A stretch of DNA of 56,759 nt from Candidatus Spechtbacteria bacterium RIFCSPHIGHO2_02_FULL_43_15b (GTDB lineage: Bacteria > Patescibacteriota > Minisyncoccia > Spechtbacterales > HO2-43-30): NCBI GenBank assembly GCA_001819985.1, contig MHOE01000006.1, forward strand, positions 25,934 through 82,692, written 5' to 3'. Position 1 is the stretch's first letter; each line of letters starts with the position of its first letter. The notes below the pieces were generated by a model, which was given only the letters and a program-made list of their open reading frames with translations, was not told the origin of the DNA and searched no databases. Of the stretch, positions 4,520-28,640 are shown piece after piece. The translations under genes were made by a program, and so were the position numbers.

Positions 4520-5476
4520 ATGATAATTTTTCTCTATGGCCACGACACTTATAGGGCCGGACAAAAAGCAAAAGAGATTATAGCCGGGTACGAAGATATT
4601 CATAAAAGCGGCCTCAACCTGCGCTTTTTTGATTTCGAAGACAGCGCTTTCGGGGATTTCAAAAATGCGGCTGAATCAGTTTCTATGTTTAACGAAAAAA
4701 AACTTTTGGTTCTTAAAAACAGTTTTTGTTCAAAAGATTTTGTAAACGATTTTTTGTCATGGGGCGGGAAAGAAGGCATTGCGGTTTCAAAAGACATAAT
4801 TTGTTTATTTATGGAAGTAACAGCCGATAAGTCGAGCGACATATTCAAATGGCTTGCGGGTAACGCAAGGTGTCAGGAATTTAACGAGCTTAAAGGCACA
4901 AAATTAAAAAATTGGAGCGTGGATTTCGCGAAGCAAAAAGGAATCTTAATGGAATCTATCGTGGCGGAAAGATTGATTTTTTATACGGGCGGAGATTTAT
5001 ACGCCCTTCACAACGAAATTTCAAAAATAGCGTCTTATGTCTTAGAGAGGTCCGGATCTAAAACGGCGACAGAAGGCGACTTGAATATTTTAATAAAACC
5101 AAAGCTCGAGACCCACATATTTTCTCTCGTGGATTCGTTTGTGGAAAAAGACAAAAAGAAGGCGTTAAGGCTTTTGCACGGCCATATAGAGGCGGGGGAT
5201 AATGAGATGATGATTTTTTCAATGATTCAAACGCAATTTAGAAACATCGCCGCGATAAAAGATTTAATCGACGCGGGAGAAAAGGATTCTTACAGGATTT
5301 CAAAAATTTTAGGAATTCATCCCTATGTTGCGAAAAAAGGTATGTGGCAATCCGCGAGGATGGATAAACGGGAAATAAAAAATATCTACAAAAAATTTGT
5401 AGATACGGAGATAAAAGTAAAGACAAGTGAACTAAGTTTGAAATCGGGAATGGAGAATTTGTTGTTTGAGAGCTAG
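4520..5476 (+). CDS. holA: DNA polymerase III delta subunit
   Basis: 318 aa. It has the typical HolA N-terminus (MIIFLYGHDTYR...), an overall clamp-loader delta layout and a helical C-terminal domain. Confidence 0.7.
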   Translation: MIIFLYGHDTYRAGQKAKEIIAGYEDIHKSGLNLRFFDFEDSAFGDFKNAAESVSMFNEKKLLVLKNSFCSKDFVNDFLSWGGKEGIAVSKDIICLFMEVTADKSSDIFKWLAGNARCQEFNELKGTKLKNWSVDFAKQKGILMESIVAERLIFYTGGDLYALHNEISKIASYVLERSGSKTATEGDLNILIKPKLETHIFSLVDSFVEKDKKKALRLLHGHIEAGDNEMMIFSMIQTQFRNIAAIKDLIDAGEKDSYRISKILGIHPYVAKKGMWQSARMDKREIKNIYKKFVDTEIKVKTSELSLKSGMENLLFES

Positions 5477-5766
5477 TTTTTTGGAGTGTTTTTTGCCTCC
5501 GGAGCGGGTTTTGGATTAAGTTTTTTGGCGACTACGGATTTCCTTCTCGACGCGGTATTCTTTTTTATAACTCCGACCTTAGCGGCTTTATCCACCGCTT
5601 TATAAAATTTCGGCAGAATTTTTTTTAACTCTTCCTGATTTTTTTCTTTCGCGAAAGCAAGCGCTCTTTTCATAAGGGTTTTTATTTTGTCTTTATATTT
5701 GAGATTTCTTTTCTTTCTCGTCTTGCTTTGGCGCAGGGCCTTTTTAGCTGATTGCGTGATGGGCAT
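5473..5766 (-). CDS. rpsT: 30S ribosomal protein S20
   Basis: The MPITQSAKKALRQSKTRKKRN... N-terminus is a basic helical protein typical of bS20. Confidence 0.9.
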   Translation of the reverse strand: MPITQSAKKALRQSKTRKKRNLKYKDKIKTLMKRALAFAKEKNQEELKKILPKFYKAVDKAAKVGVIKKNTASRRKSVVAKKLNPKPAPEAKNTPKN

Positions 5767-8987: not shown

Positions 8988-10448
8988 TCAATAAAGAGCT
9001 ATTTGAAGCGGCGTTCCGTTCGCGGAAAAGGCGACAGGTTTCTTGTCGATGTAAACACGAAAAGAACCAGGCTCGACCAATACCAATATATCTCGCGAAT
9101 TCACGATAAGGTTTTCCAAAACAGTATGGGCGTTAAACGGAAATGGATTCATTATAGCCATATTTGGAGCATAGGGCCTGATACCCACGACATATTTAAT
9201 AATGAGGTCGTTTATCCATGAATGCAGATAATTATCAATTCCGTTAAATCCGTTTTCGGTTGTGCTGGCCGAATACCGTTTTAGCGGATGGTAATGCTCA
9301 AAACTGTTCGGCCTTAAAGGATCTCCCTCAAAGCTCATTGTTGCGAGCCATTTCTCAAAGAAACTGACAAATTCGCGGCGAAGGCGGTTGTCGTCAAATC
9401 TGATTGCTAAGTTAGCGATCGCTTCGGCTATATGCGAGTTTGTCATAGGCCACATCCTGCCGTTCCATGGGCACATTTCTTTTTTGCCCTTCCATATTCC
9501 ATCCGCGCTGAACTGTGGATCGTCCATGCTTAATGTGGGGAAGGGAACGGGCGTAAAAAATTCTTCGGAATTGAATAGGTGCTTCTTAAATCCTGCCAAG
9601 TGTTTTTTTGAAACAATATTGGTGAAGTAAGGATAAAAGCAAGTTAACGCTTTAACATCCGTTCTTCGCATTTGATTGGCGTCAAAGTCAAAAAACATTT
9701 CCTGAACTGGATCCCACATATATTTCAAGACGGCGTGTTTAACCTTTTGAGCTCTTCGGCTCCAGGCCTCGGCTGAAGCCGTCCCTCCTAAAAGTTGAGC
9801 CATTTTACGCAAGGATTCGTAAAGCTGATAAATATATACTGTGGCATCCACGCCTTTCAAGCAAAATACATTACCCCAACCGACAGAATCGGCCTTATCG
9901 CTTACGGTGGAGTACCTTGGAGAAAACTCCTGCCCGGTCTCGAAGTGATTGACGATGTCATACATATAGAACCGCTCACGGTCGCGTTGTCTCTCAAAGT
10001 ATTCCGCGTAGCGCGAAAGGCCATTATAACAGTATAAAAGGAAATCGCGGTCTGGATGCAACCAGTAAACTTCGAGCACGGATGTTCCCCAGTCGGCATG
10101 ATAAAATGTTTCAGGATTTGCGCCTTTTTCAGGATTAATGTGTCCCGGCAGGGAGCCATCCGCGGCTTGGTTTTCAATAAAGTTAACTATCGATCCTTGA
10201 GCGAGAAGGGGGTTTTCTAGCCACCTTAATTCTCGCATATGCGCCTGGGCGCTGTAAGAGATATGTTGCTGAAAAAAACTAGTCCCCTCGTAAACTCCGG
10301 GCGCGGGAAGATATTTAGCTTCTTGTTTTCTTTTACTAAAATCAAAACTCAAATCCTCCAGATTCTTCCAGCGATAGTTATAGAAGTTTTGAAAGTAGGG
10401 GTTTTGGCAGTCAAGCTTTGGTGGGTCTCCAAAAGGAAAAAAAGTCAT
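8988..10448 (-). CDS. (alpha/alpha)6-barrel glycoside hydrolase, GH63/GH37 (MGH1/trehalase)-like
   Basis: 486 aa. The segments ETGQEFSPRY and WNGRMWPMTNSHIAEAI resemble the acid/base regions of GH63/GH37-type glucosidases. The family assignment is from memory only. Confidence 0.5.
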   Translation of the reverse strand: MTFFPFGDPPKLDCQNPYFQNFYNYRWKNLEDLSFDFSKRKQEAKYLPAPGVYEGTSFFQQHISYSAQAHMRELRWLENPLLAQGSIVNFIENQAADGSLPGHINPEKGANPETFYHADWGTSVLEVYWLHPDRDFLLYCYNGLSRYAEYFERQRDRERFYMYDIVNHFETGQEFSPRYSTVSDKADSVGWGNVFCLKGVDATVYIYQLYESLRKMAQLLGGTASAEAWSRRAQKVKHAVLKYMWDPVQEMFFDFDANQMRRTDVKALTCFYPYFTNIVSKKHLAGFKKHLFNSEEFFTPVPFPTLSMDDPQFSADGIWKGKKEMCPWNGRMWPMTNSHIAEAIANLAIRFDDNRLRREFVSFFEKWLATMSFEGDPLRPNSFEHYHPLKRYSASTTENGFNGIDNYLHSWINDLIIKYVVGIRPYAPNMAIMNPFPFNAHTVLENLIVNSRDILVLVEPGSFRVYIDKKPVAFSANGTPLQIALY

Positions 10449-10464
10449 TTAGATGCCTCCTTGC

Positions 10465-11715
10465 TTAGATTACTATTCTTTTCCGTTCTTCTTCGGTGAG
10501 ATCCTCACATAAAAGATCAAGTATTGCCGCGGCTGACCATGCCTGAACATGATTCGCGGGTTTTGTGCCCCATCCAGCGACGGTATCGGTTGTTTTAAGC
10601 GTTCCGTTTACGGAAGCGTGAAGTTCGGGCGCGCCAGAAAGTAAACAAGCGGTGTTTAGCAAGCTTTCTTTAAGAAGACGGGCTTTTATCTTGCCGTTAA
10701 AATTTTTAGTTCTGTCAAAGGGATGAGTGTAAGCAAAATTTTTCAATCCATAATAAATCATCCAGTTGTCCATTATCCAGATAGATCCGAGGTGGTAGAG
10801 ATAATCGCCGAAGCACGGCTCTTTATCGGAAAGCGTTCTTATGCCATAAGGAGTGCACAAATCCGGCTGGAAAAGCCGTTCCGCGCAGGCATTCATTTTT
10901 TCGGGGTCGTTTATTATGCCGGTGAATAACAAATGACCCTGACTCGATGTCGCGGCATTTATCCGCTTCTTCTTCGCATCAAGAGCTAGAGCGAAAGCTC
11001 CAACATTTTCGTCCCAAAATCGGGCATTAAAGTTATATCTTATAGCTTCAGCGTTTTGATAATACTCCCTCCACTGTCCGTTAAAATGCGCGCTCATTTC
11101 AGACATAAATTTATAGGCAAGATAAGCGTATCCTTGCACTTCGACAAAATTTACCGGATATTCGGGTTCAAAACAGAATGGAGTATGGTCTTTCCAGCAT
11201 TGATTTCGTATGCCGCGGGGGTTCAAACTTTTACATTCTATGAAATAATCTCCGTCAGTATCCCCGTAATATTTCATCCAAGCCGCGGCCGCTTCAAGAT
11301 TGGGCCATATTTCTTCAACAAAATCCCAATCATCGGTAGCGGCGGCATATTTGTGGGCAAGTATTATAAACAGCGGAGTCGCATCAACGGTGCCGTAATA
11401 AGGGAATTCCCAGAATGGTATTTGGGAAACTTGCCATTCAAACTCTCGGTGCTCATGCAGTATTTTTCCAGGTTGCTCTTCGCTTTTCCAGTTGTGTCTT
11501 TTACCTTGCAAACTCGCAAGAATTTTGAGGGTGTTCCGAGCTATTTCGGGAGCATTGCCAATGCGAGCATTAAGAAGCATTAAGGAAGTGATGATCGAAT
11601 CTCGTCCAAAGAGCCATCGAAAGTCCTTGCCGCCCGCGAAAAGATAGCCGTATGTCGGATGCTTAAGGGATTCAAGGTCATTTATCATTTTTGCTAAAAG
11701 TTGAGTTTTGTCCAT
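10465..11715 (-). CDS. Amylo-alpha-1,6-glucosidase / glycogen-debranching-enzyme C-domain (GDE_C) family protein
   Basis: Motifs FGRDSIITS, GKILHE, YGTVDATPLF, NQCWKD, FVEVQGYAY, GIRTLS, YHLGSIW and QAWSAAA follow the GDE_C pattern. Confidence 0.7.
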   Translation of the reverse strand: MDKTQLLAKMINDLESLKHPTYGYLFAGGKDFRWLFGRDSIITSLMLLNARIGNAPEIARNTLKILASLQGKRHNWKSEEQPGKILHEHREFEWQVSQIPFWEFPYYGTVDATPLFIILAHKYAAATDDWDFVEEIWPNLEAAAAWMKYYGDTDGDYFIECKSLNPRGIRNQCWKDHTPFCFEPEYPVNFVEVQGYAYLAYKFMSEMSAHFNGQWREYYQNAEAIRYNFNARFWDENVGAFALALDAKKKRINAATSSQGHLLFTGIINDPEKMNACAERLFQPDLCTPYGIRTLSDKEPCFGDYLYHLGSIWIMDNWMIYYGLKNFAYTHPFDRTKNFNGKIKARLLKESLLNTACLLSGAPELHASVNGTLKTTDTVAGWGTKPANHVQAWSAAAILDLLCEDLTEEERKRIVI

Positions 11716-11790: not shown

Positions 11791-11880
11791 TGTTTAGTAA
11801 CGCGCATATATTGTATGCGGTTGAACTTTGACAAATAAAAACCGAAAGCTAAGTTCAAACTTGGAAAACAGGAGGATGCT

Positions 11881-14616
11881 ATGGTATCTGGACGCGATGC
11901 GCCCTTACCTCAAAAGACCGGATTGGAGCTTATCGCGGGATTAATGGGAGCCCTGATTCCTATGATATCCGTACCGCTAATCGGGTTTTTCGTTTTCTTG
12001 ATGTTCACATGGTCGCCGTATTTTTCGACTTTTGCCGCGTTTATTTATGGCGCGCTCGCGTCATTTGTAGTCGGAGTTGTGATTTGTGTAATTCAGGGAC
12101 GCATTAACAAATATGTATCGAATTACTTCCTTTCAGAAGAATACGGCACGCTCAAAGGAAGTGAACGCAGAGCGATGGCGAGAAAGGCCGTTAGGGAAGT
12201 GCGGGAAGACTCGATACGAAAGCATGCTTGGCAGACAAGGTTCAACTTATACAGGCGCGGAGTAATAATCGTCGTCGCGCTTTTTGTTGTTGCGTATTTT
12301 GCGAATTCTCTATTTGGCATATACCCTAAAGATCTATTCAAAATTTCACCTTATCTGCTTATAGCTTTGTGGGTGATCCTTGTATTACTGCTTCCGGACA
12401 TCTTTCTTGTATTGCTAATCGTTACGCTTACCGGAATATCACTGTCGCTACACATACTCGGCCCGACGATACTGATGTATTTTATTCCGTTTTTGTTTTT
12501 GATGCCTATGAATTTTCTAATGATGTTTTTAGTGATGTTTGGACCCTTGATGATAATAAACATTGCGCAGATACAGACATTGAAACCCACAGACGCGAGA
12601 TGGGGCAACACGCCCGATGATGTTCGCGGGCAGAAAAGCGCTATGCGTCAGTTGCTTTTACAGATACGGATTATCGCTTCTGCCGAAGGGGACGAAATGG
12701 TTAAAAAAGTGGGCGAGCGAGGAAGGCCTAGGGGGATTTTGTTATTCGGTCCTCCGGGCGTTGGCAAAACTCACAGCATGAGAGCTATGGCTACAATCCT
12801 GAACGCGCCCATTATGATAATACCGGCGAGCGCTTTCAGCTCCGCGTTTATGGGTGTCGGCATCTGGACAATGTTTGTCGTTAAGATTTTAGCAGGGATT
12901 CTGCAAAAAAAATATAAATGCGTTATTCTGTTTTTCGACGAAGCGGAGCAGATCTTAATGCGCAGGCAAGGCGTGATGGGCGGGGAGTATGAAGCGAAGA
13001 ATATCGAAGCAAGACCTACGATTTTGAATATACTGGAAAGGGACAGTTATGGACGGGTGGCGAATTGCGGACTTGGGTTTATCGGGGCAAATGAGGACGA
13101 AATATCCCCGAGCTCATTTTCCGCGCCAAGAACTCATCGATTCATGTTTCCCGGGGGAATGGGAGGCATGGGCGGAGGAGGCGCTATGGTTCAGCCGGTG
13201 CTTTTGAACTGGATGGACGGAATGAGAACCCCGCCATTGCTTTCCAGAATATGGAGAGGCAAAGTTAATGATCTGGCTACGGCGTTCTGGATACCGCCAA
13301 TGACTAAATTCGGAGGCAAAACTATTCATTTTCGCGTTCCTCCGGCGGATCCTCCTCCGGATAACGCGGTATTTGTTGCGGCTACAAATATGCCGCACAT
13401 GATTGATCCGGCTTTTCAGCGTTATGGACGCTTTGGCTTAAAAATTCATTTTTCGAAGCCGAGCGAGGAAGACAGAGAAGATCTTATCGATTTATTCTTC
13501 TCGCGTCTTAAGGAAAAGGGCATATTGGATCCGGATCTTGACCAGCCCGATCGGAAAAAAGAATTCGCTAGAGCCACAGTTGGGCTTTCTCATGTGGAAA
13601 TAGAACAGGTTACCATGGATGCTTATATGTTGCGCAATGTCCATATTCAGCGTGTTCGCGAATTAAAGCGCAGATTAGATTCAAAAGATGAGTTGGACCA
13701 ATATGAAAAACGGTTTTGGGAAAGGTTTAAGGGGGAGATGGAGCAAAGCGGCTGGGATCGAATGATTGTTAACTGGGAGTCGCTTTCAGAGGCGCTTATG
13801 AATATCCGTTCCGGTGAGGCAAACCCCGCTATTACATCGCCTCGTCACAGAAAAACTACAGCTTACCACGAGTTTATGGGTCATATGCTTCCTCTTGGTT
13901 ACTTCTGCCAAGATGTGATGCGGCCAGTAGCTCTGTCTGTTATGCCAAGAGGCGGAGCTTTGGGTATGGTGATACATGTACCCATAGAGGAACGCGATCC
14001 AGAACCGCAACGGGTGTTTGACGGACTTTTACGAGTGATGGTCGGTTCGGTCATCGCGGAACGCGTATTTTTTGGAGATAACCAGCCCGGGGTAAGCGGT
14101 GATTTGGATCAAGCAACTAGCCTTTCCGCGTCTATGGTGGGCAGGCTGGCAATGGGTCCAAGAAATTGTTCAGAAGACGAAGAAGAGATATACGCGAATA
14201 TGGGGAAAGGATTCTTCACGCTAAAGGGAGCGGCCATGTTTTCCGCTGAATCCGGAGGATCCGGAGCATCTTCGCTTCAAGACCCCGATAAGCGTCATAA
14301 GATGCTCGTTTTATTGGGGCAGGCAGTCGTAGATGTGTGGCGATTAATAGACAAGAATAGAACATTGGCAGATGACGACACGCTAATCAGGGGCGGTGTG
14401 TGTAATAAATTACTGGAAGTGGACGAAATAACGGGCAGTGAACTCGAGGAACTATGGTCTAATCTTGGTAAATCGGTAAAGCCGTTAACTAACGAAGACA
14501 AGATAAAGTGGCCGCCAAAAGAAATATTCGCGTCGGAAAACCCGTTCTACGAAAACAATAACGGAGAGGATATATGGAGCACTCCCGAATATATGTACGG
14601 TATGGACGACTGCTAG
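11881..14616 (+). CDS. FtsH-like membrane AAA+ protein with a degenerate M41 zinc motif (HEFMGH)
   Basis: SD AGGAGG lies 5 nt upstream of the start. There are 6-7 N-terminal hydrophobic segments. AAA+ elements present: Walker A GPPGVGKTH, FMG pore loop, Walker B FFDEAE, AATN sensor-1 and RYGRF. The C-terminal half follows FtsH protease blocks (TAYHEFMGH, MPRGGALGMV, VIAERVFFG, SGDLDQAT). Confidence 0.75.
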   Translation: MVSGRDAPLPQKTGLELIAGLMGALIPMISVPLIGFFVFLMFTWSPYFSTFAAFIYGALASFVVGVVICVIQGRINKYVSNYFLSEEYGTLKGSERRAMARKAVREVREDSIRKHAWQTRFNLYRRGVIIVVALFVVAYFANSLFGIYPKDLFKISPYLLIALWVILVLLLPDIFLVLLIVTLTGISLSLHILGPTILMYFIPFLFLMPMNFLMMFLVMFGPLMIINIAQIQTLKPTDARWGNTPDDVRGQKSAMRQLLLQIRIIASAEGDEMVKKVGERGRPRGILLFGPPGVGKTHSMRAMATILNAPIMIIPASAFSSAFMGVGIWTMFVVKILAGILQKKYKCVILFFDEAEQILMRRQGVMGGEYEAKNIEARPTILNILERDSYGRVANCGLGFIGANEDEISPSSFSAPRTHRFMFPGGMGGMGGGGAMVQPVLLNWMDGMRTPPLLSRIWRGKVNDLATAFWIPPMTKFGGKTIHFRVPPADPPPDNAVFVAATNMPHMIDPAFQRYGRFGLKIHFSKPSEEDREDLIDLFFSRLKEKGILDPDLDQPDRKKEFARATVGLSHVEIEQVTMDAYMLRNVHIQRVRELKRRLDSKDELDQYEKRFWERFKGEMEQSGWDRMIVNWESLSEALMNIRSGEANPAITSPRHRKTTAYHEFMGHMLPLGYFCQDVMRPVALSVMPRGGALGMVIHVPIEERDPEPQRVFDGLLRVMVGSVIAERVFFGDNQPGVSGDLDQATSLSASMVGRLAMGPRNCSEDEEEIYANMGKGFFTLKGAAMFSAESGGSGASSLQDPDKRHKMLVLLGQAVVDVWRLIDKNRTLADDDTLIRGGVCNKLLEVDEITGSELEELWSNLGKSVKPLTNEDKIKWPPKEIFASENPFYENNNGEDIWSTPEYMYGMDDC

Positions 14617-14618
14617 AA

Positions 14619-15197
14619 ATGAACACTTCAAAACTTACCGTTTTGGCGCTATCGGTAGCATTGTTTCTAGCCGTTTTTGTTGCCGGTTGCGCTATGGAAT
14701 GGAGCGAACCGGAAGGCAAGGTAAGGGGCGACTCGACAACTGAAAGGGTCGGTTCGCTTGTCGAGATACTAAATAGTGAGAATGAGAACTTCGCGTATGT
14801 GTATTATGTTAAGTACAACACAAAGGACAACGCATGGGAATTTATGATTTTTGTGAAAGAGCCGTTCGGCAAAGTTTTTAGTAGTGGAGCGAGTGCGCCT
14901 CCGCTAGGCATAGATGACAGCGCTTCCTTGATAAATAGATACGACGGTTTAATAAAAGATCTATTCGTAGGGGTAAGCAAAGAATCGTCGGGGAAATCCG
15001 GAGAGATAAGGGCAAAGGTAATTTTTAGCGATTCGGTTGGGTGGGTTGAGTCCACAGATGAGATGGCTAAAATTTCGGCTCGGCCGCGGGAATGGCAGTT
15101 ATACATGGAAGATAGGACTGGGGGTAAGGAGATAATACTAGAGCCAATCGAGGAGTTGGAAAAACAGTTTAGAAAACGCTACGGAATACCTGAATAA
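14619..15197 (+). CDS. Hypothetical lipoprotein
   Basis: The signal peptide MNTSKLTVLALSVALFLAVFVAGC ends in a lipobox (VAG-C). Its ATG lies 2 nt after the upstream stop. An alternative upstream in-frame ATG at 14574 with a GGAGAGG SD is also possible. I recognised no family. Confidence 0.55.
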   Translation: MNTSKLTVLALSVALFLAVFVAGCAMEWSEPEGKVRGDSTTERVGSLVEILNSENENFAYVYYVKYNTKDNAWEFMIFVKEPFGKVFSSGASAPPLGIDDSASLINRYDGLIKDLFVGVSKESSGKSGEIRAKVIFSDSVGWVESTDEMAKISARPREWQLYMEDRTGGKEIILEPIEELEKQFRKRYGIPE

Positions 15198-15211
15198 TAA
15201 AGGAGGATGAC

Positions 15212-16147
15212 TTGAAAAAGAGATTTGCTTTTTCGAAATTTTTATTTGCGGTGATAGCGGCTGGCGTATTGGCGACGACGGCATGCGGCACAAGAAACGA
15301 ACCGCCCGTTGAGCAAATCACGCCCGAACAGGTTTTAGAAAATAAGATAAAGGACCTCAAAGGGCTAAACTACGGAGCATACGACAAAACACTTCTTTAT
15401 TATGAAATACGCGGAGAAACGGTTGCCGGTTCCTCGCAGTTGCTGGCGGAAAACTTTTTAGTTCCGTCAATGGTGATTCTTGGAGTTGGAAATCCTCCGT
15501 TAGCTTTTCAGCAGGAAGTGTTATTTTCTTTTGCGTGCGGTTCGGAGTTGATGGTTCCGAACCCGATAGATATGATTGATGAAGCATTGCTTAGTGCGGC
15601 CGTCGAGAAAAGTTTAAGCAAAGGTGAAATCTTCGATCCTCCAAAGGACGCGTCCTACGATGTATCAGCAGTTCTTATCGTAGGAAAGGATTTTAATGAA
15701 ATGGCCGCGGGGAAAAATTTAGGAACCGTGGACTTGGCGGATGCAAGGCACACGATAGGCGGCAAGTTTGTAGCGGCGCAAGCCCCGGTAGGATTTAATT
15801 TTACCGCAATTCAGAATAAGTGTGATTTCCCCAGAGGCGACCCAAGGAGATTGGACGCGTTTGACACGGTCTATGTGCACTCTGGTCGTTTGCCGGAAAT
15901 TCGTCCAATAGTGGAACCGGCTAGCGTATCATTCATGAAAGACCTTGATGCCGGGATATTTTACGCGGTAGCGAATTCGTCAAACGGTATAGTTTTTGCG
16001 GGGGGAATGGTTTTTGGATTTCGGGATGGTTTGCCCGAAGTACTCGGGCTTGTTCAAGGCCAGCCGACAAGCGGGGTCGCTATCGTAGCGGATATCAACG
16101 GCATTGTTACCAACGAAAATGCCATACTTAGCTTATTGGCTAAATAG
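15212..16147 (+). CDS. Hypothetical lipoprotein
   Basis: The TTG start has AGGAGG 5 nt upstream. The signal peptide MKKRFAFSKFLFAVIAAGVLATTAC ends in a Cys after a hydrophobic stretch. I recognised no family. Confidence 0.5.
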   Translation: MKKRFAFSKFLFAVIAAGVLATTACGTRNEPPVEQITPEQVLENKIKDLKGLNYGAYDKTLLYYEIRGETVAGSSQLLAENFLVPSMVILGVGNPPLAFQQEVLFSFACGSELMVPNPIDMIDEALLSAAVEKSLSKGEIFDPPKDASYDVSAVLIVGKDFNEMAAGKNLGTVDLADARHTIGGKFVAAQAPVGFNFTAIQNKCDFPRGDPRRLDAFDTVYVHSGRLPEIRPIVEPASVSFMKDLDAGIFYAVANSSNGIVFAGGMVFGFRDGLPEVLGLVQGQPTSGVAIVADINGIVTNENAILSLLAK

Positions 16148-16167
16148 AATCAATTGATAGAAATTAA

Positions 16168-16195
16168 AACACCGGAAAATCCGGTGTTTTGTTTA
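16168..16195. terminator. Rho-independent terminator (usable from both strands)
   Basis: The hairpin AACACCGG-aaaat-CCGGTGTT is followed by TTTGTTT and preceded by an A-run. Confidence 0.65.
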
Positions 16196-19967: not shown

Positions 19968-20768
19968 CTATAGTATTTTGATTTTTTTCTCTTTCTCTTT
20001 TATTATTTTTGGCAAAGTTATGGTTAGTATCCCATCGTTTAAGCTGGCTTCTGCTTTGTCGCTGTCAACTTCCACTGGGAGTATTATTGATCTAGAAAAT
20101 GTACCCCAGTAGCATTCCTGATAGAAATAATCTTGGGATTTTATCTTTTCTTGAGTATGACGCGATCCTCGTATATTCACGGTGTTATCTTCTATGCCTA
20201 TATCCAAATCAGTAGATTTAACCCCGGCTATAGTTGACTTTATAACAATATCTGTCGGAGTTTCATATACATCTATAGCTAGCTGTCCTTCGGGCATTCT
20301 GCTCGACATAAAATCCTGTTGTTTTTGAATCTTTTCTTTGGCAACATTAAGAGAAGGGAAGCGTTTTTTGGTTTTATGAGAGCTGACTCTTGCGGTGGTA
20401 GCCTTTGCTAATTGAGCTATTGTGTAGGTTCCTTCGCCTTGACCGGGTAATTCCGGGTCTTGCTCGTCACCTTCACTTTCGGGTGTTGCTGGGGGTAGTT
20501 CTTCTCCATCCTCGCCTACTTCATCTTCCTCCCCTTCTTCATCAACGCTATCGTCCTCGGAAGAGGTAAGGGACGCATTTTCATCCGAATCATCTTGGAT
20601 TGCCGCGTCGTCATCTGCCTGTCCGTCGCTAGTCATACCACCTTGTTCTTCAGTTTCGGTTTGCGTATCATCGAGTCGCTCTTCTTCAGTAATATCTTCC
20701 TTCGCCGTGTTATCGTCATCGTCTTGTACATTGAGAGACCCCGTAAGTTTTTGAAAAAAATTTGGCAT
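19968..20768 (-). CDS. Hsp20/alpha-crystallin small heat-shock protein with a long acidic N-terminal extension
   Basis: The C-terminal alpha-crystallin domain reads LAIDVYETPTDIVIKSTIAGV...NGILTITLPKI. The N-terminal ~120 aa are rich in D, E, S and T. Confidence 0.85.
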   Translation of the reverse strand: MPNFFQKLTGSLNVQDDDDNTAKEDITEEERLDDTQTETEEQGGMTSDGQADDDAAIQDDSDENASLTSSEDDSVDEEGEEDEVGEDGEELPPATPESEGDEQDPELPGQGEGTYTIAQLAKATTARVSSHKTKKRFPSLNVAKEKIQKQQDFMSSRMPEGQLAIDVYETPTDIVIKSTIAGVKSTDLDIGIEDNTVNIRGSRHTQEKIKSQDYFYQECYWGTFSRSIILPVEVDSDKAEASLNDGILTITLPKIIKEKEKKIKIL

Positions 20769-20846
20769 ATAAACTGTATAAAAGTCCCGATACCATGCAA
20801 ATCCTGTAGAATCTTAACGGATTTGTATTTTATCAGAGGACTATTG

Positions 20847-21560
20847 TTATATTTGCGTTATGGATTTCATACTCGAAACCTTTTGAAAATATTTTGAGAT
20901 CATGTAAGCGGAGAAGCCTATGATTATAACTACCGCTACAAATAGATAGGGCTGGCTTACCGCCTTGGTTACAAATATATTATAAAATCCATGCATCAAT
21001 ATAGCAATCAAAAAACCGTGGATAAGTAAGCGAGTTTTTTTATGAGGTTTGTACAGCGAGAGGGCTATGTAATACCCGATGGTTGCAGACGCAAGAACAT
21101 GAAGAAAAGTGGCTCCTATAAATCTCGAGAAGGCAAGGTTAAGAGTAGGGACGAATTGGCTGTCAAAAAGCGGTGTTAACAGAAAGATATTTTCGATGGC
21201 TGCGAATCCAAGGGCGGAAATTATCATATATTCCATAGCATCAACCGGCTCGTCTAATTGAATGGTCCTGTCGATAACCCTGAATTTAACGACAAGATAT
21301 TTTGCTATTTCCTCCGCGACGGAAACTACAAAAAGGTATTTTACGATGTCGGCTATTATAGAAGGAACGGAAACTATCGGAAGCAGTATTTCTATGGCAA
21401 TACTTTCAACAATAAGCGCCGGAAAGGCTACGAGCATACCCCAGATGAACACCATTAAGACCATAAGCCTTGGTTCGGGATGCTTGTCTTTTCTAAGAAA
21501 GTATAGAAGCCATATTAAACTTGGAATTAGAGCTATTGCTGTGTAGAATATGTATTGCAT
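20847..21560 (-). CDS. PrsW-family intramembrane metalloprotease
   Basis: It is a polytopic membrane protein carrying the EEIAKY (EExxK), FLHVLAS and HGFYN motifs. Confidence 0.65.
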   Translation of the reverse strand: MQYIFYTAIALIPSLIWLLYFLRKDKHPEPRLMVLMVFIWGMLVAFPALIVESIAIEILLPIVSVPSIIADIVKYLFVVSVAEEIAKYLVVKFRVIDRTIQLDEPVDAMEYMIISALGFAAIENIFLLTPLFDSQFVPTLNLAFSRFIGATFLHVLASATIGYYIALSLYKPHKKTRLLIHGFLIAILMHGFYNIFVTKAVSQPYLFVAVVIIIGFSAYMISKYFQKVSSMKSITQI

Positions 21561-21650
21561 ATTTCAAGTTGTAGTTTGGCTATTGGAGCGCGGCTGAACA
21601 AACGCACGGAATAATTAGAGTTCAGGTTTAACAAAATTTAGCGTTATAAG

Positions 21651-23918
21651 TTACTTGGATTTTACCGGCCAGCTCTCCACTATTAAGAGTTTTTTATCCT
21701 TAATAGGCAAGGTACTGTAAATTTCTTCGGTTATAAACGGCGTAAACGGATGCAAGAGTTTTAATGTTTGAGTCAGAATGTAAAGAAGAATCGTCTTTGT
21801 AATCTCTGCCTGTTTTTTCGTTTCGGCTCGGGCAATTTGTTTTTTGCTTTCTTCTAAATACACATCCGCGAAATCATGCCAAACAAAATCATAAAGCGCG
21901 TGGGCGGCGTGTCCGAATTGGTATTGTTCCAAGTACTTATCCGCGAGTTTAGACATTTTATTGAATTGGGATAGGATTTTTTTGTCGCTTTGGGATTTTG
22001 GTTTTGGAATTCGATTAGTCATCGGGGATTCGTCTTTGGTCGTTTGGAGCAATACAAAGCGGCTTATGTTCCATAGTTTGTTGCAAAATTTTTTCCCCGC
22101 CATTATGTGTTCTTCAGCAAAACGGATATCCTGCCCGCCCATTGCCTGATACGCTATGCCAAAACGAGTTGCGTCGGCTCCGTATTTATCTATCAATTGC
22201 AGTGGGTCTATGCCGGTACCTAAAGATTTACTCATCCGTCTGCCGTCTTTTGTTAGAACTGTCGCGTGTATTATAACATTGTCGAACGGTTTTTGGCCTG
22301 TAAATTCATAGGAAGAAAAAATCATCCTCGCAACCCATAAGTTTATTATACCGCGGTCAGTAGACAGAACCTGAGTCGGGTAAAATGTTTTCAAATCTTT
22401 GGATTTTTTATCAGGCCAACCTAATGTGGCGAACGGCCAAAGCGCGCTCGAGAACCAAGTGTCAAGAACATCTTCGCTTTGTTTGAGATTTGTTCCTTTG
22501 CACGACGGGCAATTTCTGGGCTTTTCGCCGGAAACGATAATTTGGCCGCATCCGACTTTTATGTCTTCATCAAGATCCATTCTTTCCTGAAAACCGTCTG
22601 ATTTACCGCAGAACCATACCGGAAGCCGGTGGCCCCACCAAATCTGCCTCGATACGCACCAGTCCCTCACATTTTTAAGCCAGTCAATATAAATTTCATC
22701 CCACCTTTTTGGCACAAATTTTACTTCGCGTTTTTTAACGGCGCGCATCGCTGTTTTTGCGAGTTGGTCCATTTTTAAGAACCATTGCAAATTCGCAAGC
22801 GGTTCAATTATCGAGTCGCACCTGTAGCAGTGAGGGACTTGATGCGCGAAATCTTCAGTTTTTTCAAGAAGGTTTTGTTTTGCTAGTTCTTCAAGCACTT
22901 TTTCTCTGCACTCGTTTATTTTCAGTCCCTCGCATACTGCTCCCGCTCCTTTTGTCATTCTTCCCCGCTCGTTAATTATTTTGTATTGTGGCAAATTGTG
23001 TCTTTGCGCTATTTCCCAGTCATTAAAATCGTGAAGGGGCGTAACTTTCACCGCTCCGGTTCCAAAGCTTGGATCAACGGCATAGTCGGCAATTATAGGT
23101 ATGTTTCGATTTTGAATCGGCAGCACAACATTTTTTCCGATTAAGTCCTTGTATCTTTCGTCTTTTGGATTAACAGCAACCGCCGCGTCCCCAAGCATGG
23201 TTTCGGGTCTTGTAGTCGCGACAATAATGTAGCGAACTTCGGAAATTTTTGAATTTTGAATTTCAGTTTTTTTCGGCAAGTGTTGATTCTCAAGTTTGTA
23301 ACGAATATGCCACAACTTTCCATTTTCTCCCTTGTATTCGAGCTCCAAATCAGATAAAGATGTTCCGCAACGGATACACCAGTTCACAACCCTCAAGGCC
23401 CTGTAAAGCCAGCCCTTGTTGTAATATTTTACAAACGCTTCAGAAACGGAGTTTGCATATCCGTCGTCCATAGTGAAACGAGCGCGCGACCAGTCACACG
23501 ACGCGCCTATTTGTTTGAGCTGATGGAGTATTATATTTCCATACTGCTCTTTCCATTTCCATACTTCTTCGATGAATTTATCCCGTCCCAGATCAAATCT
23601 GGATAGGTTCTCTTTTTTCAGTTTTTGCTCAACTTTATTTTGCGTGGCAATCCCCGCGTGGTCTGTGCCTGGGATCCAAAGCGTTTTATAACCCTGCATT
23701 CTTTTTCTGCGGATTATGGCATCTTGGATTACCGCATTCAGCGCGTGTCCCATATGAAGTTCTCCCGTGACATTCGGAGGTGGAATGGTTATGGTAAATG
23801 TTTTCTTGTGCGTCTTAGGGAGTTTATCGGGATTAAAAAAACCGCTCTTTTCCCAGAGTTCGTAAATTTTCGATTCTGTTGTTTTGGGGTCGTAGGCCGA
23901 GGGCAGTTCTTTTTGCAT
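21651..23918 (-). CDS. valS: Valyl-tRNA synthetase (short form without C-terminal coiled coil)
   Basis: It has the HIGH region PPPNVTGELHMGHAL, the editing-domain motif ATTRPETMLGD and KMSKSLGT. Confidence 0.95.
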   Translation of the reverse strand: MQKELPSAYDPKTTESKIYELWEKSGFFNPDKLPKTHKKTFTITIPPPNVTGELHMGHALNAVIQDAIIRRKRMQGYKTLWIPGTDHAGIATQNKVEQKLKKENLSRFDLGRDKFIEEVWKWKEQYGNIILHQLKQIGASCDWSRARFTMDDGYANSVSEAFVKYYNKGWLYRALRVVNWCIRCGTSLSDLELEYKGENGKLWHIRYKLENQHLPKKTEIQNSKISEVRYIIVATTRPETMLGDAAVAVNPKDERYKDLIGKNVVLPIQNRNIPIIADYAVDPSFGTGAVKVTPLHDFNDWEIAQRHNLPQYKIINERGRMTKGAGAVCEGLKINECREKVLEELAKQNLLEKTEDFAHQVPHCYRCDSIIEPLANLQWFLKMDQLAKTAMRAVKKREVKFVPKRWDEIYIDWLKNVRDWCVSRQIWWGHRLPVWFCGKSDGFQERMDLDEDIKVGCGQIIVSGEKPRNCPSCKGTNLKQSEDVLDTWFSSALWPFATLGWPDKKSKDLKTFYPTQVLSTDRGIINLWVARMIFSSYEFTGQKPFDNVIIHATVLTKDGRRMSKSLGTGIDPLQLIDKYGADATRFGIAYQAMGGQDIRFAEEHIMAGKKFCNKLWNISRFVLLQTTKDESPMTNRIPKPKSQSDKKILSQFNKMSKLADKYLEQYQFGHAAHALYDFVWHDFADVYLEESKKQIARAETKKQAEITKTILLYILTQTLKLLHPFTPFITEEIYSTLPIKDKKLLIVESWPVKSK

Positions 23919-23945
23919 AGTTTGTGCGTTTATTATTGCAGGTTT

Positions 23946-25175
23946 TTAGCTAATTTTCAAATTGCCATCCGCTGTCAGCGTTTTCCATTTATCGATACGA
24001 GCTCGGTTTTTTCTAAAGTACGCGGCCGCGGCTATCATAGCCGCGTTGTCGGTTGCAAGCTCGGCAGTGAGTAGTTGGTAATTGACAGCATAAAGTTCGG
24101 ATTTTATTTTACTTCCCAATTGATCTCGCAGTTTTTTATTTGCGGCGACGCCTCCGGCAAGCATGACTGTTTTTACTCTATAATCCCTAGCCGCCCTGAT
24201 TGTTTTTGAAATTAAAACATCAACCGCCGCTTGCTGAAATGAAGCGGCTATGTCGGCTTTTGTTTGTTTGCTTAGTTTTGCGAAATCGTTTTTCTCGAGA
24301 GTTTGGTCTAGTTTTTTTCCTACGAGTTTTTTAATTCCGTATAAAACCGAAGTTTTAAGTCCGGAGAAGCTGAAGTTGTAGTTTTTAGAATTTATCATCG
24401 GCCTCGCGAAGTTAAAAGCTCTCGCATCGCCAGTTGCCGCAAGGCGGGCAATTTGAGGTCCGCCCGGGAATGAAAGCCCAAGCAAACGCGCCACCTTGTC
24501 GAATCCTTCGCCTGCGGCATCATCAACTGTTTCCCCGATAAGTTCGTATTTGTTTATATTTTTTACAATCAATAATTGAGTATGCCCTCCCGATACGGCA
24601 AGGCAAAGCGCGGGAAAGTTGATTATAGGAAGTTGGTCGTTGGTCATTTTGCCGATTTTTGGAAGGAAATTAGCGGATATGTGTCCTTCCATGTGGTCAA
24701 CTCCCAGCAGAGGGATACTCCACCAAAAAGAAAGCGCTCTTGCGAAATTAACTCCGGCCCAAAGCGCGGGTTCAAGCCCGGGTCCGTATGTAACTGCGAT
24801 AATGTCAATTCCAGGTTTTTCTATTTTCGTTATGTAAGGTAAAAATTTTTCCATCAGCACCGGCTCTTTATCGAAAATTGATTCCAGGATTTTGAATTTG
24901 GATTTGTCATTTTGATTTTTGATTCTTGATTTTTTATTTTTTAACACACCCGCTTCGCCTAAACTTTTTTTCAGCACGGTTACCAGATTATTTTCATGGG
25001 CTCTTTTTGCCAATGTTGGCACTACGCCTCCGTAATGTTTATGTATTTTTATTTGTGACGATGTTATGTTTGAGAGTATTCGAAAAGAAGGGACTTTAGA
25101 CCCTTTTATAGGAGTAGCTTCTACTATGGATACGCAGGTATCGTCACAACTCGTTTCAACGGCAAGAATTTTCAT
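23946..25175 (-). CDS. tsaD: tRNA N6-adenosine threonylcarbamoyltransferase TsaD
   Basis: It has MKILAVETSCDDT, GVDHMEGHI, SGGHTQL and GGVAANKKLR. I place the start at the internal Met (MKILAVE), 25 codons into the 434-aa ORF, where family conservation begins. Confidence 0.88.
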   Translation of the reverse strand: MKILAVETSCDDTCVSIVEATPIKGSKVPSFRILSNITSSQIKIHKHYGGVVPTLAKRAHENNLVTVLKKSLGEAGVLKNKKSRIKNQNDKSKFKILESIFDKEPVLMEKFLPYITKIEKPGIDIIAVTYGPGLEPALWAGVNFARALSFWWSIPLLGVDHMEGHISANFLPKIGKMTNDQLPIINFPALCLAVSGGHTQLLIVKNINKYELIGETVDDAAGEGFDKVARLLGLSFPGGPQIARLAATGDARAFNFARPMINSKNYNFSFSGLKTSVLYGIKKLVGKKLDQTLEKNDFAKLSKQTKADIAASFQQAAVDVLISKTIRAARDYRVKTVMLAGGVAANKKLRDQLGSKIKSELYAVNYQLLTAELATDNAAMIAAAAYFRKNRARIDKWKTLTADGNLKIS

Positions 25176-25403
25176 GCGGTTATTATACAAAAAATTGGCA
25201 AAAATAATACCCCCCGTCAAATCAGCCGAACTTAGTTGTAATTCATTCAATAGTAGTGATTATTGCGTTTTTGCCGAAAAAATGTCAAAATACCAGCAGA
25301 TTTTAGCAAAAATTGAGAGTTAAGTTTAGTATAAGCCGCACGAAATCCATAAATTGACAGTTATAGATCAGCGGCGGAAATTAAATTTTTTAAGTAGTCC
25401 TAT

Positions 25404-25475
25404 GGCCCCGTCGTCTAACGGTTAGGACGCTACCCTTTCACGGTGGAAAAAGGGGTTCGATTCCCCTCGGGGCTA
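25404..25475 (+). tRNA. tRNA-Glu (anticodon UUC)
   Basis: I folded the 72-nt cloverleaf by hand. Acceptor GGCCCCG/CGGGGCT (G1-U71 wobble); D arm GTCT/GGAC; anticodon stem CTACC/GGTGG with loop CTTTCAC; T arm AGGGG-TTCGATT-CCCCT; discriminator A. CCA is not encoded. Confidence 0.9.
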
Positions 25476-25660
25476 CACGAATTTTTGTTCTCGCGAGAAT
25501 TTGAGAATTGAGTACTTAGTATTGGTAATTAAGATAAGAAAAACTATACAAGCGTTCCTCGAATAGAAAACGGATTGGTAGCTCGTTTTTCCTTGCGTTA
25601 TCTCAATAAGTGTGTTATGGCTTAAGAAAGAGAATGGCGGAGTTGTAAAGGAGTGAATTT

Positions 25661-26092
25661 ATGGATAGCGGTTATGTGTTTATTATTGAAACGGACAAAT
25701 TTGCTGGGAATTTTAATAGGAAGATGTGCGCTTATGCTACCGGCGTACTAGGAGCTTCTCGCGGTGGCGAAGCTGAAGCACGGGAATTTTATAATCATAG
25801 AGGTCTTGCGTGGCCGCCGGAATATGGCTATCCAGACCCAAATCCCTTTTGTGATATTATCGCAGAAATCCCCGATAGTGAATGTTGCCACGAACCTTCC
25901 GCGATATGGAGTCCGGGTAACACAAATGTAGGCATCTTTTTTTCGGAGAGGCCCTCGAATGAGCTGATGACATTAATGCAAGAGAGAATTTTTGTTTTTG
26001 CGCAGAGACATAATATCCAAATCAAACATTTTCGGTTGTTAAAGAAAGAAACCGCGTACACCGAGCAACACATATTTATGTCAGAATCGTAA
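25661..26092 (+). CDS. Hypothetical protein (143 aa)
   Basis: SD AAGGAG lies 7 nt upstream of the ATG, and a terminator follows. I recognised no family. Confidence 0.5.
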   Translation: MDSGYVFIIETDKFAGNFNRKMCAYATGVLGASRGGEAEAREFYNHRGLAWPPEYGYPDPNPFCDIIAEIPDSECCHEPSAIWSPGNTNVGIFFSERPSNELMTLMQERIFVFAQRHNIQIKHFRLLKKETAYTEQHIFMSES

Positions 26093-26096
26093 TATA

Positions 26097-26120
26097 GGCG
26101 AGTAACCCTCGCCTTTTTTT
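26097..26120 (+). terminator. Rho-independent terminator
   Basis: The hairpin GGCGAG-taacc-CTCGCC is followed by TTTTTTT. Confidence 0.6.
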
Positions 26121-26139
26121 ATGCTTTAAGGATTTTGCG

Positions 26140-26166
26140 AAAAAAAGAAGGCCGTTTAAGGCCTTC
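26140..26166 (-). terminator. Rho-independent terminator of the minus-strand M50 gene
   Basis: The hairpin GAAGGCC-gtttaa-GGCCTTC has a U-tract on the minus strand (forward aaaaaaa, 26140-26146). Confidence 0.6.
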
Positions 26167-26179
26167 GCTAACTGGATCT

Positions 26180-27046
26180 CTAGCTAAATATCTGAACTGG
26201 GTTTCCAGCGCCAGGTACTCCAGAACCAGCAGTCATTATTAGGTATAAGAAAATTGCCACAATACTGTACACGCCAAGCGACCCAAAGATGCCGTGTTTC
26301 CCCATGGGGGTTTGAGTTGTCGTAGTACTAGAAATAATATCATACTTGCCAAGATTCCCTGGTCTATTATTTACATTTCTTTTGCGTCTATGCGCTTCAA
26401 GTTCGAACACAAATTCAAGCATTCCGAATACGAGAAGGATCGAAAACAGCAACAGATGCAAATGTAACATAAGGTATGCCGCGACAACTAAACTTAGGCC
26501 GAGGAAAACAATTCCAATCCTTGAATCTATCGAGAAAACCACCGATTTTAAGATCCTGCCCCCGTCTAACGGGCTGATAGGCAAAAGATTAAAAAGGTTT
26601 ACCGTGGCCATCCATGCGGCCGCCGCTACAAAATGAGGCCAGCCAAGCGCATACCATAAAAGCAAAGCTATTGCGGAAAGCGCAAGGCCCCATATTGGAC
26701 CCATGATAGCAACAAACACTTCCACTTGTCTACTTGGGAACATACCATCTGGTACCGCCGCTGCACCAAGAAATGGGATAAAGTAAATACCTTTTGTTTT
26801 CATGCCGCTTCTTTTCATAGCCCACACATGGCCGCTTTCGTGGACAACGAGTAGTAACATAATAAGAAGCGCAAACTGCCAGCTAAACATAAGAGACCAT
26901 GCGCCCATTGCTATACCCGCAGAACCTACCTGAAAAACTTTTCCGCCCTTTAGCAATTTTGGAGTTGCCTTCACAAGAAGGTATATAAATTTCGGAAGGA
27001 GCTTACCTAGTAATACAAGTAGTCCATACGATATTTTATTTGGCAT
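26180..27046 (-). CDS. M50-family (site-2-protease-like) membrane metalloprotease, no PDZ domain
   Basis: It is polytopic, with HESGH (HExxH) in a TM segment and NLFNLLPISPLDGGRIL (NxxPxxxLDG). Confidence 0.75.
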   Translation of the reverse strand: MPNKISYGLLVLLGKLLPKFIYLLVKATPKLLKGGKVFQVGSAGIAMGAWSLMFSWQFALLIMLLLVVHESGHVWAMKRSGMKTKGIYFIPFLGAAAVPDGMFPSRQVEVFVAIMGPIWGLALSAIALLLWYALGWPHFVAAAAWMATVNLFNLLPISPLDGGRILKSVVFSIDSRIGIVFLGLSLVVAAYLMLHLHLLLFSILLVFGMLEFVFELEAHRRKRNVNNRPGNLGKYDIISSTTTTQTPMGKHGIFGSLGVYSIVAIFLYLIMTAGSGVPGAGNPVQIFS

Positions 27047-27182
27047 TACTTCCTCACTCGCGTGTCAGATTTTTCGAATATAACATAAATTTTCGAGTAT
27101 GAAAAGTGCATCGTATTTCTGTAAGTCGAAATAGTGAATATCGGGGCGAAGCGAATTTTTAAGTTTACACACAAAAAATAGC

Positions 27183-27210
27183 TTGACTATTCTTTATTTT
27201 GTTGTATATT
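27183..27210 (+). promoter_or_regulatory. Sigma70-like promoter (TTGACT, 16-nt spacer, TATATT)
   Basis: -35 lies at 27183-27188 and -10 at 27205-27210, about 30 nt upstream of ATG 27241. Confidence 0.45.
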
Positions 27211-27240
27211 ATAGGATAGTTACGATCAAAGGGGGACTAT

Positions 27241-28637: not shown

Positions 28638-28640
28638 ACA

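Follow-up and report, generated by a model that had tools for sequence, protein, structure and literature searches.

The locus

Our analysis concerns a stretch of 56,759 nucleotides (the window) from Candidatus Spechtbacteria bacterium RIFCSPHIGHO2_02_FULL_43_15b (GenBank contig MHOE01000006.1). Within it a gene at 11881-14616 encodes a predicted membrane-embedded protease of the FtsH (AAA+/M41) superfamily, with the zinc motif HEFMGH, one residue longer than that of FtsH. Two lipoprotein genes lie directly downstream, encoding LP1 and LP2, and the three together are referred to as the cassette. The genes and their signals are as follows.

11870-11875, forward strand: Shine-Dalgarno sequence AGGAGG, 5 nt ahead of the ATG of the protease gene (direct reading)
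11881-14616, forward strand: protease gene, 911 aa, FtsH-family AAA+/M41 protein of the HExxGH clade (open reading frame, Pfam, AlphaFold2 (AF2) model, Foldseek)
14619-15197, forward strand: LP1, lipoprotein of 192 aa, lipobox VAGC, Cys24 at 14688-14690 (open reading frame, homologues, LP1-profile search)
15201-15206, forward strand: Shine-Dalgarno sequence AGGAGG of LP2 (direct reading)
15212-16147, forward strand: LP2, lipoprotein of 311 aa, with a TTG start (not ATG), Cys25 at 15284-15286 (open reading frame; homologue in locus L001)
16166-16194, no strand assigned: intrinsic terminator, hairpin AAAACACCGGA-AAA-TCCGGTGTTTT then GTTT, the end of the three-gene unit (direct reading)

The stop codon of the protease gene (TAG, 14614-14616) is followed 2 nt later by the ATG of LP1 at 14619, and the stop codon of LP1 (15195-15197) is followed 14 nt later by the start of LP2 at 15212. 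The terminator hairpin is accompanied by a T-tract. This spacing agrees with an earlier interpretation made from the DNA alone (hereafter the sequence-only reading), which had described a 911-aa open reading frame with AGGAGG 5 nt before ATG 11881 and a tight operon of two lipoprotein genes, 2 and 14 nt apart, ending in a terminator. The protease is identical to OGZ58125.1 and LP2 to OGZ58127.1, both hypothetical proteins of a Candidatus Spechtbacteria metagenome-assembled genome (MAG), and in UniProt the former is named only 'AAA+ ATPase domain-containing protein'.

Domain structure of the protease

Pfam Peptidase_M41 (PF01434) matches residues 651-760 (E = 2e-17; 64.1 bits against a cut-off of 29.9), and Pfam AAA (PF00004) gives a match (E = 2.8e-16; 60.6 bits) that is split into two stretches. 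There is no Pfam match to FtsH_ext (PF06480) in the protease. A sequence search of the PDB is headed by FtsH chains, and in a motif-by-motif alignment the M41 blocks follow the order of Aquifex aeolicus FtsH. The AF2 model, made from 57 sequences, has a mean predicted local distance difference test (pLDDT) score of 77, rising above 90 over the M41 domain. Comparison of the model with the PDB by Foldseek returned FtsH, AFG3L2, YME1 and the Ycf2-FtsHi subunits, with the full M41 domain superposed and a TM-score of up to 0.80 (over the target, FtsH cytosolic regions). Judged from its sequence, the product of gene 11881-14616 is a membrane-embedded member of the FtsH (AAA+/M41) superfamily. Its parts, all on the forward strand, are listed here.

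11920-12573, forward strand: polytopic membrane domain, residues 14-231, about six helices (hydropathy, AF2, charge distribution, alignments A1 and A4)
12748-12771, forward strand: Walker A GPPGVGKT, K296 invariant (motif search, alignment A3)
12844-12861, forward strand: pore-loop-1 equivalent AFMGVG, F323 nearly invariant and G325 invariant (A3; aligned to FVGVG of A. aeolicus FtsH)
12937-12942, forward strand: Walker B D353-E354, invariant (A3)
12964-13176, forward strand: residues 362-432, a Gly-rich insertion that follows Walker B, is particular to the family and ends in FMFPGGMGGMGGGG (A1, AF2, split AAA match)
13387-13431, forward strand: sensor-1 N503 and the arginines R514 and R517 of the second region of homology, all invariant (A3)
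13636-13767, forward strand: residues 586-629, a helical insertion (about 40 aa) that follows the AAA lid and is specific to the clade (A1, A4; AF2 helices 571-600 and 607-621)
13867-13884, forward strand: hexapeptide zinc motif HEFMGH (H663, E664, G667, H668), one residue longer than HEAGH of FtsH (motif search, alignments)
14059-14103, forward strand: AERVFFG...SGDLDQAT block, E727 and D741 invariant (alignments)

The AAA+ motor is complete, with Walker A and B motifs, an aromatic pore loop, sensor-1 and arginine fingers. The codon of sensor-1 N503 lies at 13387-13389 and RYGR is encoded at 13420-13431. K296, D353, E354, N503, R514 and R517 are unchanged across the 57 sequences, as in a AAA+ protein of the classic clade. 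The Gly-rich insertion is predicted to be disordered, with pLDDT below 50 over residues 366-430, and because it interrupts the AAA module after Walker B the Pfam match falls in two stretches. It occupies the position of a short Gly-rich segment of FtsH, a site that we take to be the pore-loop-2 region. A helix hairpin is inserted ahead of sensor-1.

Hydropathy and the AF2 model place membrane helices at residues 14-44, 50-73, 126-144, 157-169, 171-192 and 196-229. The external loops are very short, at 3 to 12 residues (45-49, 145-156 and 193-195), and residues 74-125 form a strongly basic cytoplasmic helix containing 13 Lys or Arg residues. The model is most simply read as six membrane spans with the N- and C-terminal ends both in the cytoplasm. 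The last membrane helix bears a family motif, FGPLxxxNxxQI, that is conserved in alignments A1 and A4 and lies about 15 residues ahead of the AAA module. A typical FtsH is anchored by one or two helices (PMC9020784). In bacteria these N-terminal helices flank a periplasmic FtsH_ext domain, in place of which the window protease has about six helices and no PF06480 match.

The zinc motif and its conservation

In alignment with A. aeolicus FtsH, 'ayHEfmGH' stands opposite 'aiHE-aGH', and the pentapeptide HExxH that marks FtsH and M41 proteins is absent throughout the 911 aa. The predicted active-site helix, residues 654-675, is unbroken through the motif, with a pLDDT of 97. The other elements of an M41 site are present: D741 lies opposite the Asp of 'NDLQRAT' (the NDL segment) in A. 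aeolicus FtsH, which is the third zinc ligand of FtsH, and E727, from the upstream AE..(F/Y)G element, also matches the FtsH position.

The window protease falls in a 90%-identity cluster of eight sequences (from NCBI, ENA, JGI, Logan and other sources). All seven full-length, near-identical copies in the cluster, taken from separate assemblies, have HEFMGH. The same hexapeptide is found in a 61%-identical relative from a Candidatus Saccharibacteria MAG, and a 37%-identical relative has HEVAGH. A profile built from these two proteins and the window protein was run with HMMER exhaustively against 1.84 billion cluster representatives. The search revealed a distinct clade of at least 15 representatives (50% identity clusters), scoring 390-1137 bits. 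Eleven of these have HExxGH (HEVAGH, HEFAGH, HETEGH, HELGGH, HEYWGH, HELYGH, HEFRGH, HEVGGH, HELMGH and, twice, HEFMGH), and four have the ordinary HExGH spacing (HETGH twice, HEFGH and HEVGH). H663, E664, G667, H668, E727 and D741 are invariant across the clade, which overall is only about 30-40% identical.

In a rough neighbor-joining tree the HExxGH sequences form one clade, whose sister is a HEAGH protein, and the four HExGH sequences are nested at two or three places within it. The extra residue is accordingly old and heritable and has since been lost a few times, while the rest of the site is never eroded. One 1200-aa clade member (P0118) contains an intein-like insert of about 330 aa that splits Walker A between GPPG and TGKT (A4 columns ~516-857). 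Inteins as a rule sit in functional sites of proteins that are in use.

The HExxGH clade has so far been found in the Candidate Phyla Radiation (CPR)/Patescibacteria. Outside the clade the nearest sequences, at about 30% identity, belong to a family of 700-830 aa in Gaiellales, Solirubrobacterales, other Thermoleophilia and Dormibacterota, whose members keep the canonical HEAGH or HELGH and bear no annotation beyond 'ATP-dependent Zn protease' or 'AAA family ATPase'. This sister family shares with the CPR clade a polytopic anchor, FGPLxxxNxxQI in the last helix, a Gly-rich insert after Walker B (FMFPGGMGGMGG), the hairpin before sensor-1, and a translationally coupled gene for an exported or anchored protein downstream of the AAA-M41 gene. 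It differs in having four membrane helices where the CPR clade has six, in its HEAGH or HELGH motif, and in the absence of the post-lid insert (A1, A4). Relative to the sister family, the CPR clade has added two membrane helices, the insert of about 40 aa after the lid, the extra residue in the zinc helix, and a conserved C-terminal tail, WPD...NPFY. Loci were gathered in several ways. A genome scan keyed on the Walker A and B peptides brought up mostly canonical FtsH, with only three useful Thermoleophilia loci; a DNA pattern written by hand to match the last membrane helix did better; and a metagenome scan with an M41-block pattern gave a single locus, L134.

These results uphold much of the sequence-only reading. 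It had taken the protein to be FtsH-derived, with a C-terminal half that follows the FtsH M41 blocks in order, and both points are borne out by the Pfam AAA and M41 matches, by the A. aeolicus FtsH alignment, and by the Foldseek matches to FtsH, AFG3L2 and YME1. The hmmscan check that it had named matched AAA and Peptidase_M41 and not FtsH_ext, and hydropathy and AF2 agree with its view that a polytopic anchor, of about six helices, replaces that usual for FtsH. The Walker B Asp-Glu and the sensor-1 Asn lie where it had placed them, and the AFMGVG and RYGR elements that it had named are present, in an intact AAA+ core. Its Walker A was given as GPPGVGKTH at 12748-12771; GPPGVGKT occupies those positions and the ninth residue, His, lies outside them. 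The additional residue in HEFMGH is real, as homologues and the seven copies demonstrate. Of the outcomes that it had set against itself, a missing M41 match and close homologues with a normal HExxH, neither was found: the M41 match is present and the homologues have the extra residue. It had also known of no such bacterial architecture, and we found in the open-access literature no description of the subfamily, of an HExxGH M41 protein, or of the LP1 domain. As far as that literature shows, this subfamily of the FtsH family is undescribed.

Comparison with known proteases

Bacterial FtsH (MEROPS M41; TIGR01241) and the mitochondrial m-AAA and i-AAA proteases AFG3L2 and YME1 resemble the window protease in having a membrane anchor, a classic-clade AAA+ module and a C-terminal M41 domain, in the same order and with the same fold. 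They share Walker A and B, the aromatic pore loop, sensor-1, the arginines of the second region of homology, the catalytic Glu, the two His residues and the aligned Asp. Compared with FtsH, the window protease has six helices with no FtsH_ext or periplasmic domain, a short linker from membrane to AAA module, an insert of about 65 aa after Walker B, a hairpin inserted ahead of sensor-1, a helical insert of about 40 aa after the lid, the HExxGH motif and the WPD...NPFY tail. It scores 131.8 bits against the NCBIfam FtsH equivalog TIGR01241, for which the cut-off is 600. Three points set it apart from FtsH proper: it lacks HEXXH, it is not anchored by one or two helices together with an ectodomain, and it does not reach the equivalog score.

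The closest parallel to the zinc motif is found in an unrelated family. In dipeptidyl peptidase III (DPP III) of family M49 the sequence HELLGH binds zinc through both His residues and is catalytic, and the zinc helix has five residues per turn at the motif (PMC3268031). Natural HEXXH members of M49 keep the same zinc geometry (PMC5805324). HEFMGH, with G667 invariant in the clade, has the identical His-Glu-x-x-Gly-His pattern on a helix, and both spacings occur in one family, as they do in M49 (PMC3268031, PMC5805324). DPP III differs in being a soluble exopeptidase of unrelated fold, with a Glu in EEXR(K)AE(D) as third ligand where the window protease has an Asp in SGDLDQAT. By Foldseek the fold of the window protease is that of M41, and there is no M49 match in Pfam. 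The resemblance to M49 is best regarded as an analogy of the metal site only, and not as membership. TldD is another active protease with an HExxxH motif (PMC3497727, PMC5810440).

The plastid FtsHi proteins, including those of the Ycf2-FtsHi import motor, are also FtsH-derived AAA+ proteins that depart from canonical HEXXH, and they are among the Foldseek matches. They lack HEXXH altogether and are proteolytically inactive (PMC9020784). The loss of a zinc His or of the catalytic Glu that defines such a pseudo-protease is not seen here, where H663, E664 and H668 are invariant; the window protease thus keeps ligands and Glu, and it is set in a bacterium, without Ycf2 or a partner from the translocon at the inner chloroplast envelope (TIC). 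Conservation of these residues suggests that it is not a pseudo-protease of the FtsHi type.

Together, residue conservation and the precedents of M49 and TldD indicate that the protease is probably active. A wider, pi-like turn of the helix, such as DPP III has, may accommodate the extra residue, with zinc binding and proteolysis retained. The sequence-only reading had judged the site to be altered or dead. That it is altered holds, with the extra residue conserved; that it is dead is unsupported because all catalytic and metal-binding residues are constrained and the HExxGH of M49 is a working zinc site.

The exported partners

At the N terminus of LP1 and of LP2, basic residues are followed by a hydrophobic segment and a lipobox Cys (FVAGC in LP1 and ATTAC in LP2), the signal peptide and lipobox of a lipoprotein. 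The LP2 homologue in locus L001 has SLAAC. Neither Lgt nor LspA was found among the open reading frames of at least 150 aa that were scanned in the window.

A gene for a membrane-anchored exported protein directly follows the protease gene in all 13 clade loci, usually overlapping it or 2 nt away. LP1 bears an exported domain of a novel kind, about 150 aa long. In locus L001 the gene after the Saccharibacteria homologue (P0002) encodes a product 34% identical to LP1, and the product of the next gene there is 31% identical to LP2. A domain of LP1 type lies downstream of the protease in 9 of the 13 loci, spread over four subclades. There is one copy each in L003, L130 and L131; two are found as separate genes in L133 and two in tandem within one protein of L125; L127 has two tandem copies in one protein and a third in the next gene; and the match in L134 is weak. 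A profile search with the LP1 domain returned 12 proteins, every one with a lipobox Cys. The association also holds in the reverse direction: starting from LP1 homologues, three of four loci have upstream an AAA-M41 gene of 888-963 aa with HEVAGH or HELGGH, the LP1-type gene lying zero or one gene downstream of it. The fourth is on a short contig, adjoining a transposase.

In L128, L135, L136 and L137 the place of LP1 is taken by another signal-anchored protein, about 180 aa long and marked by a conserved CG...C segment; its gene either overlaps the protease stop codon or begins only a few bases from it. The Thermoleophilia sister family has as partner a protein of about 290 aa with one membrane span, whose gene overlaps that of the protease by four bases and is followed by one for a small protein with a HELCH motif. 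Alignment of LP1, LP2, the 180-aa CPR partner and the 290-aa Thermoleophilia partner by hhalign found nothing in common beyond signal peptides. LP1 and LP2 have no relatives in Pfam, NCBIfam, PADLOC or the PDB. The AF2 model of LP1, at pLDDT 61.5, is poor; no Foldseek match reached E below 0.01, and nothing came from a profile search of the PDB. For LP1 as an FtsH_ext-like domain acting in trans, the poor model and lack of structural match speak neither for nor against. LP2 had been viewed by eye as a degenerate trypsin-like protein from a G-x-S/G-M-V-F-G segment, and this was dropped in the absence of Pfam or PDB support.

The sequence-only reading had two lipoproteins acting together with the protease. 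For LP1 this is strengthened by its conservation as a neighbor in 9 of 13 loci. It is not for LP2, which is found only in the window and in L001, from the 61%-identical relative, and is lineage-specific. The nearest known analogy for a possible role of LP1 is HflK/HflC. These are membrane anchored, externally exposed and functionally coupled to an FtsH-type protease (PMC9020784). They differ in being SPFH-domain proteins, while LP1 could be matched to no known family.

Several further genes occur at these loci. In L130 (5295-6008) and L131 (5160-5975) the protease gene is separated from the LP1-type gene by one for a polytopic membrane protein (237-271 aa) in which no known domain is recognized. 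In L003 two open reading frames of about 85-100 aa (1-258 and 5363-5674), 56% identical to each other, flank the AAA-M41, lipoprotein and Trypsin_2 genes. The third operon gene of the Thermoleophilia loci L004 (9392-9673), L006 (9446-9733) and L008 (9305-9658) encodes a product 93-117 aa long in which HELCHVWQMQH is conserved, a sequence that suggests a minimal metallopeptidase; its matches to Pfam YgjP-like and eCIS_core are only sub-threshold.

A model for function and its alternatives

We think it reasonably probable that the protein is an active, membrane-embedded, ATP-dependent zinc metalloprotease of FtsH type that works with an extracytoplasmic partner, a proposal based on sequence conservation and analogy. 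The protease would assemble as an FtsH-like hexamer. Its motor would pull membrane or envelope proteins from the bilayer, through or beside its own large membrane ring, and these would then be degraded. LP1, tethered to the outer leaflet, would supply the missing extracytoplasmic module in trans as an adaptor, sensor or regulator, so taking on the recognition or regulation for which FtsH has its periplasmic domain and HflK/C. Alternatively, LP1 might be a dedicated substrate of the protease. LP2 would be a lineage-specific addition.

Several points weigh against this proposal. The TIGR01241 score, so far below the cut-off, means that function cannot be transferred by orthology. The role of LP1 is guesswork because its model is poor and matches nothing. 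The three kinds of downstream partner show no detectable homology by hhalign, and one conserved partner can therefore be spoken of only within subclades. Lastly, an insert of about 50-65 aa modeled as disordered in the pore-2 region could alter the handling of substrates in unpredictable ways.

A more elaborate version, which we consider doubtful, is that a ring of about 36 helices in the hexamer together with LP1 forms a dedicated dislocase-protease for envelope proteins, in which LP1 senses or captures surface proteins outside. The motor, held near the membrane by its short linker, would drag these back, by way of its own membrane domain or along it, into the HExxGH protease chamber. If true, this would be a retro-translocation route for surface remodeling in wall-attached episymbiotic CPR cells, and one not open to ordinary FtsH, which has two helices and a periplasmic domain.

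Rather than a protease, the protein could be a motor whose zinc site has been destroyed by the extra residue, an unfoldase or translocase that moves or extracts lipoproteins in the manner of plastid FtsHi/Ycf2. Two His residues spaced i and i+5 on an ideal alpha-helix face directions about 140 degrees apart. That geometry favors a ruined site, the Ycf2-FtsHi motor subunits are among the Foldseek matches, and a large membrane domain with a short linker to the AAA module would suit a translocase. However, FtsHi proteins have lost HEXXH (PMC9020784), whereas the catalytic and metal-ligand residues are here invariant at about 30% identity; HExxGH is a working zinc site in M49 (PMC3268031, PMC5805324); and members of the clade switch between HExGH and HExxGH while the site is otherwise unchanged. 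We therefore find a dead motor unlikely. It is also unlikely, and if anything slightly more so, that this is simply the sole, fast-evolving housekeeping FtsH of the organism, with lipoprotein genes that adjoin it incidentally. The gene does lie among core genes (ruvA, femAB-like, murE, uvrB and polA), with synteny to ruvA or parB in other CPR genomes, and no canonical ftsH is found in the 56.8-kb window. Yet an exported-protein gene comes next in 13 of 13 clade loci despite differing neighbors (ruvA, parB, clpP/tig and mreB), often with translational coupling, and the closest relatives form the separate Thermoleophilia/Dormibacterota family, not canonical FtsH. A canonical FtsH-like gene is present in at least one Patescibacteria genome (L042), which is not established as one that carries the clade.

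We give very little credence to the idea that HExxxH reflects a sequencing or assembly indel, or that the cassette came in recently as foreign DNA, for instance in a defense island. An indel artefact is ruled out by the extra residue in seven full-length copies and in many diverged homologues (at least 10 clusters). The case for foreign origin is that no other 4.3-kb stretch of the window is as rich in G+C as the cassette (0.467; the window averages 0.427, with sd 0.018), and that PADLOC reports weak matches to IetA. The sequence-only reading had hinted at higher G+C here; the excess is there, but single native genes elsewhere match it (LonB-like 0.470, PKD protein 0.467) and the hint is therefore weak. 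The PADLOC matches cover the generic AAA core only. Furthermore, the order of a divergent GDE_C-like hydrolase, the protease, exported proteins, ruvA and a femAB-like gene recurs in other CPR genomes, with flanking order conserved across CPR lineages, and for these reasons horizontal transfer is rejected and the cassette is not read as foreign DNA.

If correct, the proposed activity would make this the first M41 lineage with a naturally expanded zinc helix. The interconversion of HExGH and HExxGH within one clade amounts to a natural experiment on the stretching of the zincin helix, parallel to that in the unrelated M49. The FtsH scaffold has been re-anchored on membrane domains of four and six helices, and its extracytoplasmic part would now reside in an exported protein of its own, translated along with the protease, which widens the known architectures of membrane AAA+ proteases. 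An anonymous CPR lipoprotein family, LP1, would gain a first functional context. The cassette is kept beside core genes in tiny CPR genomes, and this suggests importance for envelope biology. All this is unexpected for the field of AAA+ proteases and zincins, although the known logic of the family is not overturned.

Genomic surroundings

The window is ordinary core genome, containing polA, uvrB, truB, ruvA, a femAB-like gene, murE, several tRNA synthetases, greA and recO, together with PKD/T4SS-pilin proteins. One further feature adjoins the cassette.

10465-11715, reverse strand: GDE_C/MGH1-like glycoside hydrolase, divergent upstream neighbor of the protease gene; context, not a proven part (Pfam, synteny)

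Genes for GDE_C-like proteins, 60-71% identical, occupy the same position in L125 (398-1645) and L127 (149-1414). Such GDE_C/MGH1-like hydrolases (8988-11715 in the window, reverse strand) are divergent from and directly adjacent to the AAA-M41 genes in CPR loci, and in two Thermoleophilia loci, L004 (2519-4582) and L006 (2530-4530), a GDE_C-type gene lies about 1.5 kb upstream of the AAA-M41 gene. The adjacency could be a functional link or a coincidence. In L137 (2518-6867) the AAA-M41 gene comes directly after trigger factor and clpP, the position after clpP that clpX takes in many bacteria.

Membrane and proteostasis genes cluster near the cassette, at 19968-31231 of the window. They comprise HSP20 (19968-20768, reverse strand), a PrsW intramembrane protease (20847-21560, reverse), two Peptidase_M50 paralogues (26180-27046, reverse, and 27888-28637, forward) and a LonB-like protease (28736-31231, forward). 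Farther along, a 1203-aa class I tRNA synthetase of isoleucyl/valyl type (33013-36624, forward) has a His_Phos_1 domain (residues 506-672) between the halves of its catalytic core. Two adjoining large proteins (47354-51715, forward) pair PKD domains with a T4SS_pilin domain (PF18895) at the C-terminus, a combination typical of CPR surface structures. Finally, genes for an indoleamine 2,3-dioxygenase-like protein, alanine dehydrogenase and proline dehydrogenase lie together at 51771-55596, an amino-acid catabolism that is unexpectedly rich for a CPR genome.

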